From a virus, in the IMG/VR virus record IMGVR_UViG_3300017917_003565, positions 1 through 64,000 of that record: DNA of 64,000 nucleotides; one strand, given 5' to 3'. How positions within the stretch are numbered: position 1 is the first letter of the stretch; every line of letters starts with the position of its first letter. Shown here in pieces: positions 410 through 52,647 of the stretch. The notes beneath the pieces were generated by a model. The model saw only the letters and a list, made by a program, of their open reading frames with translations. It made no database searches and was not told where the DNA came from. The translations under genes and the position numbers were made by a program.

Positions 410-1501
410 TTACTTATTCTTTTTGCGACCGCTTTTCATATTGGCACACCAGTGATACATCCGGCCTTTTTCACCGCCGTACTTCTTGGCCCGGGCTCGC
501 AAGTCTGTTACTGATCCTTTACATGATGCTCCAGCACGTTTTACACGTCCAGGACGACTTTTGCCCTTGACCTTGCCATCAGCAAAGTTTTCAAACACGT
601 CAGGATCAAAGTCATCTGCTGAAATAAAGTATGAGGTGCCATCTCTGTGCTGTAGTTGCACAGCATCATCTTCAGACTCGACTTGTTGTATACTCCAACC
701 CATGCTGTTTAACACTGATTCAATCTGTGGCTGTTTTTCCGCGGCATTCCACCAACGATTGGCCAAGACAAAAATGGGATCCGGAACATCATCGTTGTCG
801 TCACGTCCAGGACTGGGTGCAAATTCCATAATACCAGTGCCACGACGCAATCTCAAATCGTAGTCTACATCGCTTTCATAACGTTCAATATAATCTTGAT
901 AATAACGTTGTGCATCAGCAGGAGTATCTGCTTCAAATCGATCCACTATCTTTGTGGGCTCGTTGGCACGGTATATTTCATAACCTTTGTTAAGACGTTG
1001 TCTAGCACGAGCCATGCGTTCTAGTCTGCTATCAACTCTCTTACCAGCACGATGTAAATAATCTTGCAATCTCTCATCACTAATTTCGTTTACTTTAGAT
1101 ACAGGCATCCATGCCATGATATAATCACGATTCAACAAGTATTTGGCTGCCCAGGCCCTGTGATTGCCGTCTATGATATAGCGATCTGCATCAATCACGA
1201 TGGGTTTCTTATCTATTAGATACTGGCTGACTTCACCAGCATGACCGGGTTCTATCATCATCACACGTCCGTAAGGGTCGCTCTCGGGCTCCGCGTCATC
1301 GTAGTCTACATCGTCGTATTCTTGATCAGGTATGTTGAGATTCAACAAAGGCACACGCTGTAGTTGCCAACGAGGATGAGCCATCACAGCCGCGTGCATT
1401 TTTTCTCCAGGTTGAAAAGGCTCGTGATGAGTCTTATTGATATAAGCCAAGACTTGTTGGGCTGTGGCTTGTTGTTCTTGTACGAATTCTCTAGCTCGCA
1501 T
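410..1501 (-). CDS. Mosaic protein with ParB/Srx-like domain and basic C-terminal module; putative virion internal protein
   Basis: MRAREFVQE start; PIVIDADRYIIDGNHRAWA ParB-like motif; C-terminal NFADGK...MYHWCANMKSG. Confidence 0.7.
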   Translation of the reverse strand: MRAREFVQEQQATAQQVLAYINKTHHEPFQPGEKMHAAVMAHPRWQLQRVPLLNLNIPDQEYDDVDYDDAEPESDPYGRVMMIEPGHAGEVSQYLIDKKPIVIDADRYIIDGNHRAWAAKYLLNRDYIMAWMPVSKVNEISDERLQDYLHRAGKRVDSRLERMARARQRLNKGYEIYRANEPTKIVDRFEADTPADAQRYYQDYIERYESDVDYDLRLRRGTGIMEFAPSPGRDDNDDVPDPIFVLANRWWNAAEKQPQIESVLNSMGWSIQQVESEDDAVQLQHRDGTSYFISADDFDPDVFENFADGKVKGKSRPGRVKRAGASCKGSVTDLRARAKKYGGEKGRMYHWCANMKSGRKKNK

Positions 1502-1682
1502 GATTGATTTTTTTGGTATAAGTCATAGAATATTCAGCCAATTTTAGTTTTAATTCTGTATCCAAATCCTGTAGAGATGGATCATCTCTACGCAGAACTC
1601 CAGATGGGCGTGCTACAGCGCCTCGCTTGGAAATTACAGCTACTACAGGAGAAATAGGATTGACTGTCATCTCAAGTTTCAC
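1491..1682 (-). CDS. Small hypothetical protein
   Basis: 63-aa ORF filling the gap between flanking genes. Confidence 0.45.
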   Translation of the reverse strand: MKLEMTVNPISPVVAVISKRGAVARPSGVLRRDDPSLQDLDTELKLKLAEYSMTYTKKINHAS

Positions 1683-1686
1683 ATGA

Positions 1687-4600
1687 TTATGTCATCTCTG
1701 GTACTACATTGAACGGACCTTGATTCTCTAGTCTATCTCCTTGACTGATCAGCCAGGTCTGTGCTGTGCGGTTGGCATCGCTTTGGTTGTTGCCTACACC
1801 GCTGAATCTATAAACTTCTTCGCCGGATCGATCCAACACACGCCAGGCACCTGTGAATTCTCCAGATGATTGTGCGGCACGCTGTCTTGCCAGATCCATT
1901 GTGGATCCGGGTATGGGTTCACCGCTGGACTGTGCTCGCTGGCGCCATGGAGGTGGTTCTTGTGGATTGGCTTCGATGCTGATCACATCACGACCTTGTG
2001 CTTGTAGGGCCGAGCGTATACGATCCATGGCCGCATTGGCGTTCTCAGCATCTATGTTTAGGCTGTCTTCTACTTCTTGTCCATTTCTGCGTTCGCGCCA
2101 GCGAACTTTGTAATGCCCGGTATCACGAACAGCACCTGCTGGCTGGGGCTCTCCTACACGGGCCCGTATCTGTGCCCGATCTTGTTCATTGTCGGCTTGC
2201 TGGTTGACCCAGTCTTCAATCTCTCTGTCAGTGGCCGGACGGATGTTTTCCACATAACTGCGATTGCGGGCGAAGAAATCATCTTGTTTTTCTGCCTGGG
2301 CCTTGGCTTCGGCTTTGTCTCGGGCCTGTACCAAGGTGCCTTTGCCCCCAAACTCCACTGCCCACCATATGGATCGTTGTTTGAGACGCTGGGCCACCTG
2401 TGCTCGCTGGCTGAGTTTCTTTTCGGGTTCGGGAGTCTCGTCGGGTCTACGGAACACTTGCCAATCATCGGACAGTCGATCTCCGTATTCTGCTTGGACT
2501 TTTTCGTTGGCGCTATCAATGTCCTTGGCTCTCACTGTGAGTATGATGTCACCGTAGGAATCTTTGACATCAAACCATGGATGTTTTATACGAACATCCA
2601 GACTGTTCCAGCGGGGGTCATCTTTGTATTTCTTTTTGTAAATATCGTTGGCGTCGTCGTAGTCTGTGGCATAGAACGTGTCAATCACACCATCGGGGCT
2701 CTTGGACTTGTTCATGTCGTAGACTTCGTATTCTATTTTACCAGTGCTGGGTATTTCTTTGCGTAGCACAGCATCGGCCCACTGTTTCTTGAGTTGTTCG
2801 GGAGAGATTGTGCCCGCCGCATATTCCGAGAACAGTTTCAAAGCATCATCCTGTGCGCCTGGACTGATCAACTTGTACAGCTTCTTGGCATACTCTCGGC
2901 GTTCCAGGGCTGGACTACCGGCGATCTGCATGGCACGTGCGAAACGCAACATGGTATTTTTGATATCATCATATTCGCCGCGACTTTCCATGCTCAAATA
3001 ATCACCACCGGGGCTTCGGAACTCGATGTAGCCATCCTTGATGTGTGCTGATGTGTACTTTGAATTCCCCACGCCTTGTTGAACATAACGAGACGCTAAC
3101 TCAATGAGATTCTTTTGCACCAACTCTAGCGCACCCATAGGGTCCAGCTTGGCTTCTGTGAGTTCACCTCGATTTCGAGCACCGGCTATGTTTTGGCGTA
3201 GTTTCTGCATGGCCGAGGCAGCATAGGTATTTGAAGCGCGACCGAACTTGTCCAGGATGTATTCGTCGCCCATGAACAGCACCAATTTGACGTAGTCAAC
3301 GTCACCGCCTACATAAGGGATGGATATGCCCATGTGTAGTCCGGTAGAATTATTGGTGTAGGCATCGGCTTCATCGTTGCCCCAGTCTATGACTGCTTTG
3401 AGTTTTTCCAGGGCCTGGGGCAATGGCATGGGTGGCGACACGATCTCTAGACCCATATCGTCATCATCATCGGGGTCCAAACTACCATCTGGTTCTATGA
3501 TCCAACGATCGTCTTTGCGAACGGTTGAGTGATAACCCGACCCCACTTTGACATCCATGCCCACTACGTCATGCAAACTCTCAGCAATACTATCCCAGTC
3601 TCTGCTACCACCGCCCGATGAACCACCGGTCCAGTAAGGCCAGTCCAGGCTGAAACTGTTGCCAATCTCGCTCATGTAACCATAACGATCACGCAGGAAA
3701 TCGCTTTCGTCATAGTCGCCACTGTCCGCCATCATGTCAGAGAAGTATTCTCGGGCCGAATCATAGTATTCGCCTTGGCTTTCAAATTCGCTGACGATTT
3801 CACTTTCAAATTCTTCGTAGGCCGCATCGTAGGCTTGTTTATACTTGGCATACAGATCATTTTCTTTCTCATAGGCTTCTTGATCACTGCTCTTAGTAAA
3901 ACGTGGAGCGGCGTTGCCGGCCTGCATGATGTCTTCAACATCGTCGTCGGGAAACAACTCATCTATCTTGTTGACTATACGGTTGTCGCGTTCTTCGTCA
4001 TCGCCCCAGACATTGGTCTCCATGTAGTCACGCACTTGATCTTCTGCATCGTTGTCCCACTGCTCTTGGATCTGCTCATCGCGCCATTCGACAAATTCTT
4101 CCATGAGGCTGTTACGTAGTTCTCTGGCACCGCGTGGACTCAATCCATACCCATAGTCATCATTGGAAAAGAAATCTACCACATGCTCGACGCTGTCGGG
4201 GCGCTCGTCATAGTCGTAATCAGGTTCTTGATCTTCATCATCTTCGTCACGCTTGGTATCACGGAAGATCATTTCTGCTTCAAACCCAGCACGGATGCCC
4301 TGGGCTTCGGGCGATCGTGCCCAGGATTCCAGAGCCGACGGACTCATTTTGACTTCATCTAAAGGTTGTTCTATGCTTTCGGCCACTTGTCGACGATACA
4401 ACTGATACATCTTAAGGAATTCTTGTTCTTGCCGGCTCAACACTCGCCCTAACTGTATTTTGCCCATGATGAACCGGTAATACTGTTCGGCGTCCTGGCT
4501 TTTGTTCACTGGAGCCTGTATAGTTTCATCCACATTATAGGTAGGATCGGTCTTGACGGCTTTGCCAACTCTCCGTTTAGGATCACGAGGATCTATGTCA

Positions 4601-6291
4601 GTGACATCTAGACCGGTGGCTCGGATCTGATCAATGAACTTGTGTTCGGTATCTTCGTCACCAAAACTGATGATACTGCTAGGAGGCCCGGCACCAAAAT
4701 CATGCTTGCCTAGGCCTTTCATATTGCTAATGTGTTGTCCTAGTTTGTACCAGTCATACACATCGCTGACATCCACACGCAGGGTGCCTGCGGGCATGGT
4801 AGGCTTGAATTCAGGACCGGGTGGATTGTCAGGGTTGTAATCTTCTTTGGCTCTATATCGTTTGTATTCTTTGTATAAGTTTTCAAAAAGGCCATTGGCC
4901 TGAGCAATCTGTGGATGGCCTTGACGATCTGTTTTTAATTTTAACTTGTTGGCTTCTTTGCCTACTTGTCCGGGCTTGATGTCCACTGTGAGTGCCATAC
5001 TGAAGCGTGGATCTTTGGCTTGTGCCCGGGTGGGAATATATCCACTTGCGCTTTCTTCCAGATCGTGTGCCTGTCCTGCATCAAAATGTTCGGGATGCAA
5101 TCTGGCCCAGTCACGCATGAGTACTCCGGCTCTGGCATTGGCTTCATTTTCATATTCGCTGCCAGTTTCGCCTGCTGAGGCAGGAACATCTTCACGCTCG
5201 TGTTGGCGCTTGTGTGTGAGTTCATGTGCTACCGTACGCAACACATCCATGATGTGTCGATTGCCCCAGGCCACTTCCAGGATCTTTGAATCATCTTGAT
5301 AACGACCAAAGGTTTTGTGCACCTTAGGCCACTGTGGATCTCTGCGCAACTTCACAGTTGGCATGTTTTGTATTTTGAGTTCTGCCGTACAAAACTTGAT
5401 AAAGTCTTTTAATATCTGTTCGTCGGTGACTCCTGCATCTTCTCTGATGCTTTCGCCGCCATCACCACCTGCATCACCACCTTCGGTGCCTGCTGGATGA
5501 TCTTGCCCAGCATAGGCTGTGCCCGGATACCAATAGGCTCCATAGCCATACTTTACTTTCTTTTTCTTTTTCTTCCGGCGCTCGTCTAGACTTAACAACT
5601 GATCTTTGGCCGCGTTACGTGCATCATATAACTTTTTGATCAGACCTTGTGTGCGCAGGATTTTGAATGCTAGATTCTCTGGCCCAAACTCACCGTGAGC
5701 ATCCAGCCCGGCCTGGCGGTATTCTTTGATCTTGTCAGCCATGGCTGAAATCTTTTCATAATCTTGGCTCGCAACAGCGGCTTCGATCCTGTGTCCTAGA
5801 TCCTCAAACTTTGATCGGACTGAAATATCATCTACGTCTGGTCTGCGTCTCTTTGGAACACTGACCCAGTCATTGTTGATGATGCTGTAGATACCTTGAC
5901 TGACATGTTTTTTATTCGCGTCCTGCACATACAGTTCAACATCATAACCGCCGATTTTTATATCGTGCTGATCATTATAGGCGTACTTTTTGGCATCAAA
6001 CAGTTCGCGATACACTTCGCTGGCATCGGCCTGAGGAAGATCCACCACTAGGTGCAGATCTATATCAGAATGGGGGGTATAGGTGTAAGCGGCGTTGGAA
6101 CCTGAAACAGTGATGTCTTTGACTTCAACGTTGATGCCCAAAAATTCTCGGAAATCGTCGGCAATTTTCAGCAGTTGTTCACGTACCTCGGGACGCATTT
6201 TTTCATCGGCGCCCCAGATACGCGGATTTAATCGATCGTTGAATTTGACAGCATCGCCAAGATCGTAGGAATCTAACTCATGGATGTTCAT
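1687..6291 (-). CDS. 1534-aa multidomain protein: pol-beta-type nucleotidyltransferase, zincin metallopeptidase, amidoligase (COOH-NH2 ligase type 2)
   Basis: GSNAAY...SDIDLH (NTase); AHELTH and E-NEANA (HExxH zincin); GFEAE, EPDGSL, GLEIVSP, STGLHM, YIEFRSPGG (amidoligase). Confidence 0.75.
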   Translation of the reverse strand: MNIHELDSYDLGDAVKFNDRLNPRIWGADEKMRPEVREQLLKIADDFREFLGINVEVKDITVSGSNAAYTYTPHSDIDLHLVVDLPQADASEVYRELFDAKKYAYNDQHDIKIGGYDVELYVQDANKKHVSQGIYSIINNDWVSVPKRRRPDVDDISVRSKFEDLGHRIEAAVASQDYEKISAMADKIKEYRQAGLDAHGEFGPENLAFKILRTQGLIKKLYDARNAAKDQLLSLDERRKKKKKKVKYGYGAYWYPGTAYAGQDHPAGTEGGDAGGDGGESIREDAGVTDEQILKDFIKFCTAELKIQNMPTVKLRRDPQWPKVHKTFGRYQDDSKILEVAWGNRHIMDVLRTVAHELTHKRQHEREDVPASAGETGSEYENEANARAGVLMRDWARLHPEHFDAGQAHDLEESASGYIPTRAQAKDPRFSMALTVDIKPGQVGKEANKLKLKTDRQGHPQIAQANGLFENLYKEYKRYRAKEDYNPDNPPGPEFKPTMPAGTLRVDVSDVYDWYKLGQHISNMKGLGKHDFGAGPPSSIISFGDEDTEHKFIDQIRATGLDVTDIDPRDPKRRVGKAVKTDPTYNVDETIQAPVNKSQDAEQYYRFIMGKIQLGRVLSRQEQEFLKMYQLYRRQVAESIEQPLDEVKMSPSALESWARSPEAQGIRAGFEAEMIFRDTKRDEDDEDQEPDYDYDERPDSVEHVVDFFSNDDYGYGLSPRGARELRNSLMEEFVEWRDEQIQEQWDNDAEDQVRDYMETNVWGDDEERDNRIVNKIDELFPDDDVEDIMQAGNAAPRFTKSSDQEAYEKENDLYAKYKQAYDAAYEEFESEIVSEFESQGEYYDSAREYFSDMMADSGDYDESDFLRDRYGYMSEIGNSFSLDWPYWTGGSSGGGSRDWDSIAESLHDVVGMDVKVGSGYHSTVRKDDRWIIEPDGSLDPDDDDDMGLEIVSPPMPLPQALEKLKAVIDWGNDEADAYTNNSTGLHMGISIPYVGGDVDYVKLVLFMGDEYILDKFGRASNTYAASAMQKLRQNIAGARNRGELTEAKLDPMGALELVQKNLIELASRYVQQGVGNSKYTSAHIKDGYIEFRSPGGDYLSMESRGEYDDIKNTMLRFARAMQIAGSPALERREYAKKLYKLISPGAQDDALKLFSEYAAGTISPEQLKKQWADAVLRKEIPSTGKIEYEVYDMNKSKSPDGVIDTFYATDYDDANDIYKKKYKDDPRWNSLDVRIKHPWFDVKDSYGDIILTVRAKDIDSANEKVQAEYGDRLSDDWQVFRRPDETPEPEKKLSQRAQVAQRLKQRSIWWAVEFGGKGTLVQARDKAEAKAQAEKQDDFFARNRSYVENIRPATDREIEDWVNQQADNEQDRAQIRARVGEPQPAGAVRDTGHYKVRWRERRNGQEVEDSLNIDAENANAAMDRIRSALQAQGRDVISIEANPQEPPPWRQRAQSSGEPIPGSTMDLARQRAAQSSGEFTGAWRVLDRSGEEVYRFSGVGNNQSDANRTAQTWLISQGDRLENQGPFNVVPEMT

Positions 6292-6309
6292 GAGTGTATT
6301 TACCGCTGG

Positions 6310-8090: not shown

Positions 8091-8106
8091 TGTAATATAT
8101 TTATGT

Positions 8107-9079: not shown

Positions 9080-9808
9080 TTATTTAGTTGTGACCACGAT
9101 GGGCATGGTTTTTCTTATGAGTCCTGGGTGTACGAGATTCAACATGGTTATCCAGCTGGAGTTGTTGTAGTCCACGAAAAAATAATCTTGGCTGCTTTTG
9201 AACTGGGCGTCACAGATCCATGATTTCAAAGATGGTGCCAAACGCACATGATCCAGTTGATTGTTCAAAAACTCAGTGAGACGTTGTTTTTGTTCGTCCG
9301 TGAGCTTGGCATATCTAAAATAGCTTCGTAGACTGTATTTTGATCGTTGCAGTCTCACAGTGTTTTTGGGTCGATCTATCTGGGCACGAGAATAGGTTTT
9401 GTTGGCAAGTTCGGGCATGCCATCTAACTGTTGCAACAGTGCCGGGTCGTTGCTGTAGATATGTCCTTGATGCAGACCCACTACCAGTTTGAAATCATGA
9501 TCAGTGTTCAGCAACACATCAGCCAAGGCATGCAGATCCTGTATGGTTTTGTCTGTGATGGGTCTCCAGAATCGATGCATGCTGGGTGTGGACCCATGCT
9601 GGGCCCAGCGTTGTTCAGCCATTTCTCGCCATTGGCAACGTCGATGTATGGTTCGATCTATCTCCTTGTGATTCAACACTCGTAGACTGTTGATCTCATC
9701 GAGATCGAAGGCCATGCAGTATTCAAAACGATCGTAGAACCAACGATCTTTGCATACTGTCTTAAATGGCAGAGTTGGGAGTGTCAAGTCTGATGTATCC
9801 ATCGGCAT
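9080..9808 (-). CDS. Hypothetical protein
   Basis: 242-aa ORF overlapping the clpA end. Confidence 0.6.
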   Translation of the reverse strand: MPMDTSDLTLPTLPFKTVCKDRWFYDRFEYCMAFDLDEINSLRVLNHKEIDRTIHRRCQWREMAEQRWAQHGSTPSMHRFWRPITDKTIQDLHALADVLLNTDHDFKLVVGLHQGHIYSNDPALLQQLDGMPELANKTYSRAQIDRPKNTVRLQRSKYSLRSYFRYAKLTDEQKQRLTEFLNNQLDHVRLAPSLKSWICDAQFKSSQDYFFVDYNNSSWITMLNLVHPGLIRKTMPIVVTTK

Positions 9809-12041
9809 CTACCATGGGCGACGCCTGTGGTAGGTCAATAGTGAAATCCACTGCTCCGTCTCGGAGATCTACATTGATCTGGCAGTTTTCCAGTTTGTCA
9901 AACAGTATACGCTTGCTCAAGGGCACGCGAATCAGCTCGTCGATTTTGCGTCCCAAAGGTCGTGCGCCCATTTTAGAATCATAGCCCTTGTCGGCCAGCA
10001 TGTCGATCACGGCCTCAGTTAATGACAGACGTATGTTCTTATTCAACAGGCTGTCTTTGAGCTCGTCTACAAACTTGAGCACCACTTTCTTCACTGCCAA
10101 GGTATCTAGTTTGTTGAACTTGCACACACAGTCTATCCTGTTGCGTAGTTCGGGTTTGAAAAACTCTTTCATGGCCCGGTCTTCGGATCCGGTTTTTTCC
10201 AAGCTCTGGCCAAAGCCAATGTTGTTGTTTTCATTGTCGCGAGCACCCAAGTTAGATGTCATGATGATGATGCAGTTTTTGAGATCCACGGTTTTGCCTG
10301 CGGTACCAGTGATTCGTGCTTCGTCTAACATCTGTAACATGATGTTAATCACATCTGGATGAGCTTTCTCTATCTCATCAAACAACAATATAGAGAAAGG
10401 ATGTTTGCTGACATCTGCAATGAGTTTGCCGCCACCTAGATTGCCATCTTCGAATCCTACATACCCAGGTGGTGCTCCAATCAGACCACTCACGGTGTGT
10501 CGTTCTTGATATTCACTCATGTCATATTTCAGCAGTTTCATATCAAGATTTTCTGCCAACAATCTGGCCAGTTCAGTTTTACCAGTGCCGGTGGGGCCCA
10601 GAAACAAAAAACTGGCTATAGGGCGACGGTTGTTGCCTATGCCGGAGAAGTTGATATACACCCGTTCCAGCACACGATCCACGGCATCATCTTGCCCATA
10701 GAGTCGTTGTTTGATGTTGCTTTCTAGCTCAGTGACTCTGGTGCTTCGCTCATTTTCTAAACGATCCAAAGGCACATCAGTCACGCGACTCAACTGTGCC
10801 ATGATCATGTCACGTGTGACTGTGATCAGGCCAGCATCCTTTACACGCTCTCTGGCGCAGGCACCATCCAACAAATCAATGCTCTTATCAGGATTCTTAC
10901 GATCATGCATGTAACGACCACTTAACTCTACTGCTGTGGTTATAGCTTCAGTATCGATTAGCACATTATGGAATGACTCCAGACGTGGACTCAATCCAAT
11001 CAGGATCTGTTCTGTAGTTGCGGCATCAGGTTCATCCACGCCCACTCTATGGAACCTGCGCATAAGTGCTCGATCCTTTTCAAAACTTTCATAAAACTCT
11101 TCCCAGGTAGTGTTGGCCACGACCTTGATGGCTCCACGTGTAATGGCTGGCTTCAACATATTGGCCATGTCTAGAGTGCTTTGACTGGAGCTTCCTGCAC
11201 CCTTGATAGTGTGCGCTTCGTCAATGAACAACACACAGTTTTTCTTGGTTTCCAGAGCGGTGATTACAGCCTTGAACTTTTCTTCAAACTCACCGCGATA
11301 TTTTGATCCGGCCAACAATGAGCCAACTTCTAGACTCCACACTTCGTGATCTTTCAAGAACTCTGGCACACGTCCAGCTGAGATTTCCTGTGCCAGACCT
11401 TCTACGATGGCAGTTTTGCCCACACCAGGATCTCCAACCATGAGCACATTGGCTTTGAACTTGCGTGCCAACACAGTGATTATTTCTTCTAACTCTGAGC
11501 TACGACCAATCATGGGTTCCAGGCGATCTTCTCGCGCCAACTGTGTGAGATTCACACAGTGCTCTGCAAGTATTTCTGTGGCCTGCTGATCGGTGAGTTG
11601 TACATCACTTTGTCTGTAGTTGCCCTGATAAAACTCCACAAACTCGGTTTTCTTTACTCCGTATTTGAGTAGGAAATAATGTGCGTGACTATTGGTCTCG
11701 GCCATCATGGCCAGGTAAAGATCAACAGTGCTGATGGTTCTACGACCCGTGAATAGAACCTGAGTAAGTGCTCGATTGAAACAGCGTTCTAATGCATTGG
11801 TCTTTTTGGGTTGAATGTCTTTGGTGGTGACCACCGAGGTCAGACCCGACAGGTATGCCAGCAGTTCGGAATCCAGCATGGCTACATCGGTGCCAAACTT
11901 CTCCAGCACACGGCGGAATGGTTCGTGACGTATCAGGGCCAACAACACATGTTCGGTCATGACATATTCGTGTCGTAGTTCTCGTGCCAGTTTGACCGCG
12001 GCATCAACTATCTGTTCGATTTCAGGATTGTTCTGCATCAT
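9762..12041 (-). CDS. clpA: ATP-dependent Clp protease ATPase subunit, ClpA-like
   Basis: Clp N domain; two AAA+ modules (GDPGVGKT/FIDEAH, GPTGTGKT/LFDEIEKAH); IGF loop; no ClpB middle domain. Confidence 0.9.
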   Translation of the reverse strand: MMQNNPEIEQIVDAAVKLARELRHEYVMTEHVLLALIRHEPFRRVLEKFGTDVAMLDSELLAYLSGLTSVVTTKDIQPKKTNALERCFNRALTQVLFTGRRTISTVDLYLAMMAETNSHAHYFLLKYGVKKTEFVEFYQGNYRQSDVQLTDQQATEILAEHCVNLTQLAREDRLEPMIGRSSELEEIITVLARKFKANVLMVGDPGVGKTAIVEGLAQEISAGRVPEFLKDHEVWSLEVGSLLAGSKYRGEFEEKFKAVITALETKKNCVLFIDEAHTIKGAGSSSQSTLDMANMLKPAITRGAIKVVANTTWEEFYESFEKDRALMRRFHRVGVDEPDAATTEQILIGLSPRLESFHNVLIDTEAITTAVELSGRYMHDRKNPDKSIDLLDGACARERVKDAGLITVTRDMIMAQLSRVTDVPLDRLENERSTRVTELESNIKQRLYGQDDAVDRVLERVYINFSGIGNNRRPIASFLFLGPTGTGKTELARLLAENLDMKLLKYDMSEYQERHTVSGLIGAPPGYVGFEDGNLGGGKLIADVSKHPFSILLFDEIEKAHPDVINIMLQMLDEARITGTAGKTVDLKNCIIIMTSNLGARDNENNNIGFGQSLEKTGSEDRAMKEFFKPELRNRIDCVCKFNKLDTLAVKKVVLKFVDELKDSLLNKNIRLSLTEAVIDMLADKGYDSKMGARPLGRKIDELIRVPLSKRILFDKLENCQINVDLRDGAVDFTIDLPQASPMVDADGYIRLDTPNSAI

Positions 12042-12109: not shown

Positions 12110-12868
12110 TTATTTTTGGTATTTGGACCGAATCAGTTCCAGTAGATCATTGGGTATGTCTTTGGGTACAGAGGTTTGTATGCGTACCAAAAGATCTCCT
12201 ACCTGTCCCGAACGAGCCAGTAAACCACGACCTCGTAAGCGGATCAGTGTACCAGGTTGTGTTCCTGCAGGTACACTCACGACCAAGGTATTTTTTAGGA
12301 TATCTTGTATTTCAATCTCTGTGCCCAAGATCAGATTCCATATATCCACGGTTCGTTCCATGGTGAGATTGAGCCCTTGGCGTTGAAATCTAGGATCCGG
12401 GTGTACGCGGAAGGTCACTATGAGATCCATGCCGCCGGGCCCAATACCAGGATATTGTACAGAATCTCCGTCATCTATACCCTGTGGTATTTCTATGTCA
12501 GCGGCCACAGTGCCATTGTTGCTGCCGATGCTGACAGTGCGCCGGCCTCCTTGAGCAGAATCAGTGAGTGTGATCCACAGACTCATGCGGGCCTGTTGCA
12601 TGCGTTGATGAGGTTGTTGGAACCTGGCACCAAACATGTTGAATATGTGATCAAAATCAAATCCGCCGGTGCCAAACGGTGAACCATGTTGTTGTGCCTG
12701 AGGTCTAGGATTGGTCAGAGCCTCATAGGCCGATTGTATCTCTTGGAAACGGCTGGTGTCTCCGCCCTTGTCAGGATGATGCTGGCTGGCCAGTCGTCGG
12801 TAAGCACGTTTGATTTCATCCGGAGTGGCGTTGCGATCCACGCCCAAAGTTTGATAAGGATTTTGCAT
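12110..12868 (-). CDS. DnaJ-family co-chaperone lacking zinc finger (CbpA-like)
   Basis: J domain with HPD, G/F-rich linker, DnaJ C-terminal domain. Confidence 0.9.
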   Translation of the reverse strand: MQNPYQTLGVDRNATPDEIKRAYRRLASQHHPDKGGDTSRFQEIQSAYEALTNPRPQAQQHGSPFGTGGFDFDHIFNMFGARFQQPHQRMQQARMSLWITLTDSAQGGRRTVSIGSNNGTVAADIEIPQGIDDGDSVQYPGIGPGGMDLIVTFRVHPDPRFQRQGLNLTMERTVDIWNLILGTEIEIQDILKNTLVVSVPAGTQPGTLIRLRGRGLLARSGQVGDLLVRIQTSVPKDIPNDLLELIRSKYQK

Positions 12869-15871: not shown

Positions 15872-15879
15872 ACTAGTAT

Positions 15880-16296
15880 TTAACGAGGTCTGCCGGCAGT
15901 TACCCGTTGTATGAGTTCGGCGCTGTGTTCTATGTTGTTGTATTTGAGTCGGCAAAAAGTAGCACTCACAGGACCTTTGCTATAGGCCGTGTTCAACCCT
16001 TGTGCTATTTCGTTGAGGGCACGCGAAGCTCGATACCCATTTTCGTTGCGTGGAATCAGCTCTGAATATTTTTCATACAGTTCTGTCTTGGCAGCAACAG
16101 TCTGAGCATTTTGTGGTGCCAACATAGGATTATCACATTGTCGTCGATATTGTATGGCCTGTGTGCGAATCTCTGTGATCAAGAGATATTCGTTGGCATC
16201 ATAAGGTGCCATGAAGTAGGCATCCCAGAGAGCACATCCACTGAGTGCGGTGGTCGTCACAGTTGCCAACAATAATCTACGCATATTTCTCATCAA
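15880..16296 (-). CDS. Lipoprotein
   Basis: Basic N-terminus, hydrophobic stretch, lipobox LSGC. Confidence 0.7.
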
Positions 16297-21112: not shown

Positions 21113-21289
21113 GCAGTTATTTATGGTGATTTGCTGGCGACAGAGATTTGAGAAACATTCAGCCAAGCATAATACTTATCACGATTTTTAAGAAATAACT
21201 AACCACACTAAATTCTCGGATCTAACACCGTAAATATTCATGACAGCGGTCGCTGTCATTTCAACACTAACTTCTACGGAGATTTGCAC

Positions 21290-51766: not shown

Positions 51767-52647
51767 TAGGTATTTAATCTAGGGTTTACTGTGAGAATAA
51801 AATTGCTTTCATAGGCCTCGGCTATGTCTTTGGTAGAGTAGGCATTGGCCAACATGTCAAGAGCTAGATCCTTGGCTTCTGGCTTGTCCTCTCTACTGAC
51901 TCGCACCCAGGCCTGTGCCAATGGATCACGCTTGTTTTGCAAGATTTCCATGAATTGATCATCGATGCTGTTGAGCTTTTGTTTGACCAGAATATCTGCC
52001 ATGATCTGCTCAGGAGTGAGAGTTTCTTCAAACAGTGACAAGAAATGATTGGTGCGAACCTTGCTGTCAAGATAGGGCTTGATATCATTGAATTTGAGAT
52101 CGTCTAGTTTCAGTGTGGACCTCATGATTTCAAAGATTTGTTCTTGACTGAATCCGTCGGGTGCATAATGCCATTTGACATTTGAGCCATGGATGATTTC
52201 CATGTTGGTACCATGTCTGTGCAACACTTCTCCTTGGGCCGCACCAGCACCGGTGGCAAAGGTCACATATTCGCAATCAGGGTTGATCGCGGTACAAATG
52301 TCATGATTGGTGCCCCAGCGTTCAATAGCATTGCCACCGGTGCCTTGATGCTTGGCTTCAAACACACATTTGAGTCGACGGTTTTTCACTGTTCTATCAC
52401 CATCAAACCACATGCCGCCGTCGGGCACACAGCCTAACGTGATGCCCATGGACACCAGTTCTGGCAATCCAGCACGATCTCTCACGCTTTCGCTGATACG
52501 GTCACTGGTGAGATTCCTATGACCTTGTTCATAATGATATCGTTTTTGGGCCAAGGCAATGGCCTGCGAAACCACTCGGACATCGCCGTCGAGTTTTTTG
52601 GATTCTGCGCTGCCTGCTTCGGTACCTTTTTGTATGCCACCTGCCAT
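51766..52647 (-). CDS. EcoRI-like type II restriction endonuclease
   Basis: PDGG, EAKHQG, GNAIER: the EcoRI catalytic and recognition motifs in order. Confidence 0.75.
   Translation of the reverse strand: MAGGIQKGTEAGSAESKKLDGDVRVVSQAIALAQKRYHYEQGHRNLTSDRISESVRDRAGLPELVSMGITLGCVPDGGMWFDGDRTVKNRRLKCVFEAKHQGTGGNAIERWGTNHDICTAINPDCEYVTFATGAGAAQGEVLHRHGTNMEIIHGSNVKWHYAPDGFSQEQIFEIMRSTLKLDDLKFNDIKPYLDSKVRTNHFLSLFEETLTPEQIMADILVKQKLNSIDDQFMEILQNKRDPLAQAWVRVSREDKPEAKDLALDMLANAYSTKDIAEAYESNFILTVNPRLNT

Follow-up and report, generated by a model that had tools for sequence, protein, structure and literature searches.

The DNA analysed here comprises positions 1-64,000 of the viral IMG/VR record IMGVR_UViG_3300017917_003565. 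This window opens a contig of 112 kb whose completeness is estimated at 33%. On the minus strand the window carries a gene for a protein of 1534 amino acids (aa), P0001, which we refer to as the polyprotein. A preliminary description had read it as a polyvalent protein or polyprotein, in which a nucleotidyltransferase (NTase), a zincin and an amidoligase are joined to small modules and separated by short sites ending in Glu. The open reading frame (ORF) was confirmed, and all three enzyme assignments hold by profiles, motifs and fold matches. The small modules are also present, including about five at the C-terminus of the AlphaFold2 (AF2) model. Altogether the protein contains at least three enzymes and about seven further modules, which are arranged as follows.

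1687-6291, minus strand: polyprotein ORF (P0001), a single ATG-start frame of 1534 aa plus stop.
6277-6291, minus strand: residues 1-5 (MNIHE), a possible short propeptide ending in I-x-E (IHE 3-5), at which cleavage may occur.
5581-6276, minus strand: residues 6-237, Pol-beta nucleotidyltransferase with helical C-terminal subdomain, ending in LDE 235-237.
5440-5580, minus strand: residues 238-284, linker with a Lys run and rich in Gly and aromatic residues, predicted disordered (predicted local distance difference test, pLDDT, 26-39), ending in IRE 282-284.
5053-5439, minus strand: residues 285-413, minimal zincin metallopeptidase with HELTH at 356-360, ending in LEE 411-413.
4882-5052, minus strand: residues 414-470, basic 57-aa segment with no confident fold (pLDDT 32-40), ending in LFE 468-470.
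4525-4881, minus strand: residues 471-589, small alpha/beta module "D3", ending in VDE 587-589.
4354-4524, minus strand: residues 590-646, helical hairpin module carrying VAE 636-638 and LDE 644-646.
2755-4353, minus strand: residues 647-1179, amidoligase of glutamine synthetase (GS) fold (Amidoligase_2), first strand GFEAEMIF 668-675.
1690-2754, minus strand: residues 1180-1534, tail that varies among homologues and comprises about five small alpha/beta modules (about 1186-1235, 1239-1281, 1308-1352, 1392-1443 and 1483-1531), fold from the AF2 model.

Two AF2 models, covering residues 1-650 and 656-1534 and each based on 41-sequence alignments, were used for the domain map, and the domain assignments rest on VIA second-look structure comparisons. 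Foldseek searches with the two multi-domain models returned nothing at E<=1e-3, and a profile search of solved structures with the family alignment returned nothing at E<=1. The identities of the three enzymes are nevertheless clear, and their catalytic residues are all invariant. The NTase matches PHROG 36119 over residues 15-234 (E 4e-40) and, marginally, Pfam NTP_transf_2 (PF01909; 21.1 bits against a cut-off of 21). Its invariant residues are G64-S65, D76-x-D78 and the third carboxylate E119, and its Foldseek neighbours are ANT/AadA proteins (AAD(9), aminoglycoside NTases) and CdnE (E about 2e-3). The standalone NTases of cyanophage S-CRM01 (g125) and Maribacter phage Molly (Molly_26) stop at residue ~235, which agrees independently with a boundary at LDE 235-237.

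The zincin is modelled with a pLDDT of about 90 over residues 287-405, and an invariant E381/E383-A-N helix follows its HExxH motif. The top 50 VIA rows for residues 286-414 are zincins throughout. The match to Wss1 (5xbn) has a Z of 8.8 with a root-mean-square deviation of 3.0 over 99 aligned residues, and SPRTN (Z 8.4), selecase (8.3) and IrrE (8.0) score so similarly that the comparison does not discriminate among the four. Foldseek returned jannalysin/abylysin with a probability of 1.0. No Pfam family matched the zincin above its cut-off; Tox-MPTase3 (E 0.016) and Peptidase_M78 (E 0.11) appeared below threshold. The amidoligase scores 31.3 bits with Pfam Amidoligase_2 (PF12224; cut-off 22), a family that was matched in 22 of 24 homologues. 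In the fold comparison it is most similar to glutamine synthetase 2ojw (Z 8.9; 179 residues aligned, spanning model residues 1-481). An insert of 216 aa at ~680-895 is acidic (isoelectric point 4.05) and helical, with a pLDDT above 90 despite its low-complexity look. The small modules are harder to place: when isolated, the 414-470 segment, D3, D4, the acidic insert and the C-terminal modules gave only sub-threshold noise with Pfam and PHROGs. The 414-470 segment is nearly invariant among close homologues, and it is kept in the relative P0144, which lacks D3 and D4. In the tail, coverage among homologues drops from 119 to 22 of 119; its module at 1392-1445 is similar to PurS/L31e-type folds (Z 7.6).

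The polyprotein belongs to a very large and wholly uncharacterised family of a widespread phage lineage. A word-indexed search found 1961 family proteins among 8000 scored candidates, and an exhaustive HMMER scan with residues 1-1180 gave 7315 representatives (50%-identity clusters) at E<=1e-3 and 2375 at E<=1e-30. The homologues are encoded on contigs of ~340 kb, several of which have direct terminal repeats and are 95-100% complete; the host phage of the polyprotein is an uncultured, T4-related jumbo phage of ~340 kb. Homologue length spans 1346-2661 aa, with inserts at ~410, at ~590-650 and after 1175. These inserts include ART-PolyVal (E 2e-59), SLT, LysM, ParB_N, GNAT, deaminase and sigma70_r4 domains; in P0144, for example, SLT and LysM are inserted between an INE and a VNE. 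The kinship with polyvalent proteins that had been proposed is borne out by these relatives, since ART-PolyVal, SLT with LysM, ParB_N and GNAT are hallmark inserts. In the relatives P0232, P0233, P0237, P0241 and P0257, other domains precede the NTase module, which lies 330-1055 residues away from the N-terminus, and the module order in the family is therefore not fixed. A nucleotide search of cultured phage records gave no match, and an NCBIfam search returned no family.

We then examined the sites that were thought to separate the modules. All of the tripeptides listed in the preliminary description were located (LDE 235-237, IRE 282-284, LEE 411-413, VDE 587-589, VAE 636-638, LDE 644-646 and LTE 1044-1046), and IHE 3-5 and LFE 468-470 were added to them. 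In the AF2 models the named sites coincide with low-confidence linkers or with the predicted edges of domains. Conservation was scored on 147 divergent representatives (50%-identity clusters), with the Glu taken as P1 and the hydrophobic residue as P3. At the sites beginning at residues 3, 235, 587 and 644, both positions were kept in 81-97% of the sequences. At these four sites the entropy of P3 and P1 is low, P2 is free (2.4-3.2 bits) and the sequence straight after P1 is gap-rich and variable. I-x-E at site 3 was kept in 81% of 117 divergent relatives, again with a free P2, V-x-E at site 587 in 81% of relatives, and L-x-E at site 644 in 97% of 93 divergent relatives, with entropies of 0.77, 2.63 and 0.09 bits at P3, P2 and P1. 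Sites 411 and 636 were kept in 60-65%, and sites 282 and 468, which lie in poorly alignable linkers, in 39-49% (49% for 282). Motif copies within folded domains were mostly lost (3-21% kept). The exceptions are IIE 931-933, in which P1 is the catalytic Glu 933, and FRE 47-49 of the NTase, kept in 76%. The role of the sites as separators was thus upheld by domain parsing, by their conservation with a free P2 and by their coincidence with the starts of homologous modules in separate genes, which are described below. It had also been noted that the LTE within the amidoligase need not be a boundary, and this tripeptide (1044-1046) indeed falls in a loop insertion in 31 of 120 close homologues.

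The separate genes carry an N-terminal tag. Five ORFs, all in the window and none elsewhere in the 112-kb contig, start with MRAx(E/D)F, and in four of them the tag ends in hydrophobic-x-E at residues 7-9. One of them lies downstream of the polyprotein gene:

410-1501, minus strand: tagged downstream gene of the same cargo locus, 363 aa, tag MRAREFVQE.

This arrangement recurs in the family. In 45 of 49 distinct related loci, the 6 kb that follow the polyprotein gene on its downstream side contain one to six tagged genes, and in 37 of the 49 a tagged gene starts at most 600 nucleotides (nt) downstream, often overlapping the polyprotein stop codon. In the window, a 63-codon ORF with a GTG start (1491-1682, minus strand) lies between the polyprotein stop and the 363-aa tagged gene, which it overlaps by 11 nt; this ORF has no tag and no family match.

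Comparison of the tagged proteins with the polyproteins revealed an extensive exchange of modules. Among 148 distinct tagged ORFs located beside polyprotein genes, 90 have homologues within the polyproteins of other phages. The homology begins directly after the Glu of the tag; at the aligned position the polyprotein has a hydrophobic-x-Glu, and the residues upstream of it are unrelated. For instance, a tagged protein reads ...VTE/NFADG (the slash marks the junction), and internal counterparts read ...VNE/NFADG, ...MAE/NFADG and ...VDE/NFADG. The motif was exactly in register at 62% of 130 distinct internal junctions, compared with a background of 1.8%. The 363-aa tagged protein is itself a mosaic, of which residues 139-324 and 301-361 recur as internal or C-terminal polyprotein modules in other phages. 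Its last 61 aa, the "NFADG..." module, are 87-89% identical to polyprotein C-termini and also occur as standalone tagged proteins of 66 aa. Domains of P0001 have separate counterparts as well. The counterpart of D3 in locus L042 is a tagged 240-aa protein (MRAQEFISE/KWS...) that is 70% identical and whose D3 part ends in ...NVAE. The amidoligase and tail correspond to a tagged 860-aa protein in locus L076 (MRYREF...LVE/VAMSP), and further split-off amidoligase forms exist, e.g. MRY...LDE/LRMNP. Intact tags (R-A-x-E-F-x-x-E) are not enriched inside polyproteins, where 12 were seen versus 21 in shuffles; the fusions therefore keep the P3/P1 motif only. This selective retention argues for a functional cleavage motif and against a fusion scar.

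The motif is that of a known protease. In phage T4, cleavage by gp21 follows a Glu and is determined by residues 8 and 10 of a capsid-targeting sequence 10 residues long, and the enzyme Alt loses a propeptide of 7 residues (PMC9026906). The tag of the neighbouring genes resembles this capsid-targeting sequence. A Peptidase_S77, the family of T4 gp21-type prohead proteases, was found above the cut-off in all five complete relatives searched (5/5), each of which carries the orthologous gene, and the nearest cultured relatives of these proteases are from Rak2-like and related jumbo phages.

Such cultured phages also provide a link to virions. The amidoligase AUZ94978.1 of phage Atu_ph07 is 33% identical to residues 910-1142 of the polyprotein and starts with MRWQDISSKKLTE/LKMN. 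The mass calculated for this protein, 57.93 kDa, equals that of Atu_ph07 gp196 (57.94 kDa), a protein that is listed with 14 unique peptides and 30.2% coverage in the virion table obtained by electrospray ionisation tandem mass spectrometry (PMC6102473, Table S5). The homologue of phage RsoM2USA, RsoM2USA_26, has the N-terminus MKLIQKLSE/LKMD, so that the junction is kept there as well; ORF26 is not listed in the virion analysis of RsoM2USA, which covered only 10 bands. In neither Atu_ph07 nor RsoM2USA did we find a BLAST-detectable copy of the polyprotein's zincin. The preservation of the junction in phages without a detectable zincin favours the prohead protease as the cutter over autoprocessing. 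At this locus of Atu_ph07 (154929-160068, L090), gp196 is flanked on one side by gp195, which is annotated as a nucleotidyltransferase and is not BLAST-similar to the NTase of the polyprotein. On the other side is gp197, an 87-kDa protein that was also detected in the virion, with 15 peptides.

The region upstream of the polyprotein gene contains a sequence element that had been proposed as a late box 5 nt before the ATG and was found at exactly that spacing:

6297-6302, minus strand: TAAATA box, promoter-like, separated from the ATG by 5 nt that include no Shine-Dalgarno sequence.

Among the hexamers in the 45-nt stretches preceding the window's minus-strand genes, TAAATA is the most frequent. 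Of its 22 copies, 12 are located no more than 40 nt from a gene start (p about 6e-10). The hexamer precedes the orthologous ATG in all 55 distinct related loci (55/55), at a spacing of 4-8 nt in 51 of them, often after a terminator-like hairpin and with no Shine-Dalgarno sequence. Boxes in the window include 6297-6302, 8098-8103, 9081-9086, 15877-15882, 21118-21123 and 51771-51776. Two classes of spacing to the start codon can be distinguished: in one the box lies 4-10 nt away and there is no Shine-Dalgarno sequence, and in the other the distance is 21-31 nt and an AGGA-like site is present. Of the two, the short spacing implies that the late mRNAs would be leaderless. The box before the polyprotein gene is consistent with a T4-late-like promoter, from which transcription would produce a leaderless or near-leaderless mRNA; the "late" timing is suggested by analogy with T4. 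Further upstream of the polyprotein gene, the minus strand encodes a ClpA/ClpB-type double-AAA+ protein of 759 aa with the N-terminus MQNNPEIE (9762-12041) and a DnaJ-like protein of 252 aa (12110-12868). In most of the 80 related loci, the AAA+ gene likewise precedes the polyprotein gene by a few kb. It is conceivable that these AAA+ and DnaJ-like proteins have a role in the unfolding or loading of cargo.

The explanation that we favour, with a probability of roughly 60%, is that the gene is expressed late and that its product is a cargo polyprotein, which is packaged and which the prohead protease cleaves. It is built on the identities of the domains, a junction motif that is conserved, modules that are interchanged between polyprotein and tagged genes, the synteny, a protease gene in relatives and one cultured homologue detected in virions; for the polyprotein itself we infer packaging, cleavage, the identity of the cutting protease, ejection and all targets. 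According to this model, transcription from the TAAATA box near the ATG would produce a leaderless or near-leaderless mRNA, with the polyprotein gene at the head of an operon of further cargo genes. The precursor would enter the prohead, where a serine protease of the gp21 type would cleave after the Glu of the hydrophobic-x-Glu motifs in the linkers. Three of the predicted products contain enzymes: the NTase (~26 kDa), a zinc peptidase resembling Wss1/SprT (~15 kDa) and the amidoligase with small C-terminal modules attached (~100 kDa). The others are two small modules and two short basic peptides. All these pieces would be retained in the head until they pass into the host together with the DNA, and the enzymes would then modify components of the host or of its defence. 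The core of NTase, zincin and amidoligase may double as a carrier, into which relatives have spliced extra effector modules, among them ADP-ribosyltransferase, transglycosylase, ParB and GNAT, at these same junctions.

Several observations weigh against this explanation. The N-terminus of P0001 is MNIHELDSY and not a MRAxEF..E tag; M-x-I-x-E-L is found in 223 of 267 homologues, and only the pattern M-x-x-x-E-hydrophobic is common to this N-terminus and the tag. The tag therefore does not account for the way in which the polyprotein itself would enter the prohead. On the incomplete contig of the window, no capsid gene was found, and neither the prohead protease family nor the gp23 family had a match. 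P0001 contains 26 copies of [LIVMF]xE against 26.8 expected by chance, i.e. there is no enrichment, and the presence of 8 of the 26 in low-confidence segments is not a significant bias taken alone (Fisher p 0.21). Furthermore, the 120 closest homologues keep whole linkers, which makes site conservation uninformative among them; it was for this reason that the divergent set was used. The significance of the sites is visible only by comparison with relatives and not in the single sequence. The end of the amidoligase, [IL]-x-x-E-[VIL]-P (E1179), does not have the canonical spacing, and the C-terminal modules mostly lack canonical sites between them, with VGE 1379-1381 as the only one; the ~100-kDa C-terminal product may therefore stay whole. 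The virions of Atu_ph07 were purified only with polyethylene glycol, and the homology of gp196 covers the amidoligase alone. Finally, the full architecture was found in no cultured phage record searched, where tblastn returned only separate homologues of the NTase or the amidoligase.

Part of this evidence can be read in other ways. The zincin embedded in the polyprotein might process it in cis or in trans, in which case the junctions and the tags of the neighbours would be zincin sites and the prohead protease would be uninvolved. The whole family has an invariant zincin, in which HExxH and the Glu helix downstream of it are conserved, the tagged genes are always accompanied by a polyprotein gene, and processing of polyvalent proteins by their metallopeptidases was predicted by Iyer et al. 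2017 (PMC5512222). However, the motif equals the specificity of T4 gp21 and the tag resembles the T4 capsid-targeting sequence; the gp21 homologue in each of the five complete relatives and the ...L-x-E/LKM junction on the standalone amidoligases of Atu_ph07 and RsoM2USA, which have no BLAST-detectable zincin homologue, also speak against autoprocessing. We consider it unlikely, although it is the best placed of the alternatives. Somewhat less probable is the view that the polyprotein, with its several enzymes, stays in the cytoplasm and is never packaged, and that the junction motifs are scars of gene fusion or favoured linker ends with no present function. This would agree with the untagged N-terminus, with the chance-level motif count in P0001 and with the fact that module fusion and fission have clearly occurred; the upstream neighbours, too, are chaperone or enzyme genes (ClpA/B-like, DnaJ-like, cytidylyltransferase) and not structural genes. 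Against this view, P3 and P1 alone are retained at the junctions, and unrelated sequence has taken the place of the remainder of the former tag, a pattern that indicates selection on the motif itself. The SLT with LysM and ART-PolyVal inserts of relatives are, moreover, typical of ejected virion proteins, and the amidoligase homologue was detected in the virions of Atu_ph07.

A reading that accepts both packaging and cleavage is that the protein is scaffold- or core-like and serves head assembly; its enzymes would act in the prohead or on phage components, and the fragments would be mostly expelled or inert. The universal conservation of the NTase-zincin-amidoligase core across the 7315 representatives, which differs from the fast evolution of anti-defence effectors, would be in line with such a role, as would the charged disordered linkers, the Lys run and the acidic 216-aa insert. 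Core proteins of T4 are likewise cut at such motifs and partly expelled (PMC9026906). On the other hand, the variable inserts of relatives are classic host-directed effector domains, the catalytic residues are invariant in all three enzymes, and no similarity to known scaffold proteins was found in Pfam or PHROGs. Of the three alternatives we regard this one as the least probable, and delivery of packaged, cleaved cargo as the preferred explanation.

If the polyprotein is cleaved in the head, the protease would leave a C-terminal Glu on the released pieces, which makes these pieces possible substrates for the GS-fold ligase from the same precursor. The amidoligase might then act like a Pup ligase and join such Glu-ended peptides, including the two basic ones that are conserved and unstructured (238-284 and 414-470), to lysines of host or phage proteins. 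In that case a single polyprotein would supply a system for peptide tagging that the phage delivers. The idea stems only from the co-occurrence of a GS-fold COOH-NH2 ligase with peptides that would acquire a C-terminal Glu from a protease. PafA is not among the listed fold matches of the amidoligase, and we regard this activity as very improbable.

The polyprotein shares features with several known systems. The polyvalent proteins of phages and conjugative elements were described by Iyer, Burroughs, Anand, de Souza and Aravind in 2017, who listed ART-PolyVal, SLT, ParB and GNAT modules as their hallmarks and predicted their delivery with DNA (PMC5512222). Like these, the polyprotein is a very large multidomain phage protein with a zincin-like metallopeptidase and a Pol-beta NTase, and its relatives have mosaic, highly variable architectures with conflict-type effector domains. 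It is set apart from them by an invariant core that includes a GS-fold amidoligase (0 mentions in PMC5512222), by junctions that carry the motif of the T4 prohead protease rather than implying zincin autoprocessing, and by a gene that heads an array of cargo genes with tags like the capsid-targeting sequence and swaps modules with that array. In addition, the hosts are T4-related jumbo phages of ~340 kb.

The similarity to the internal head proteins IPI-III and Alt of T4 is that the lineage has a gp21-type protease and that the N-terminal tags of the neighbouring cargo genes end in hydrophobic-x-Glu (PMC9026906). The motif with Glu at P1, in which P3 and P1 are decisive, is common to both, in the present case as a predicted site. 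One of these T4 proteins, Alt, is a packaged enzyme that is shortened by trimming at each end (PMC9026906). Whereas the T4 cargo consists of separate single-module proteins, up to about ten modules with internal sites are joined here in one precursor, whose own N-terminus differs from the targeting sequence of ~10 residues. The giant phages phiKZ and SPN3US also have heads with many ejection proteins and a gp21-related protease that cuts after Glu, but their motif is (S/A/G)-x-E or A-x-E, they belong to another phage lineage, and no NTase-zincin-amidoligase precursor is described in these accounts (PMC5694885, PMC10052503). The closest cultured counterparts, gp196 of Atu_ph07 and RsoM2USA_26, come from Rak2-related jumbo phages. 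They are homologous to residues ~900-1174 and have the ...L-x-E/(L/V)KM... start, but they are single-module proteins of 500-523 aa, annotated as hypothetical, with no NTase or zincin fused to them.

If the favoured explanation is correct, the polyprotein family would be the main vehicle by which enzymes are loaded into the capsids of a widespread lineage of ~340-kb jumbo phages. The delivery of effectors would be modular, in that any module placed between two hydrophobic-x-Glu joints, or provided with the 9-residue tag, becomes cargo. The domain boundaries of hundreds of unknown modules could then be read straight from the sequence, and predictions could be tested in the cultured phages Atu_ph07 and RsoM2USA. 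The concept of polyvalent proteins would thereby be extended to processing by a prohead protease and to an amidoligase.

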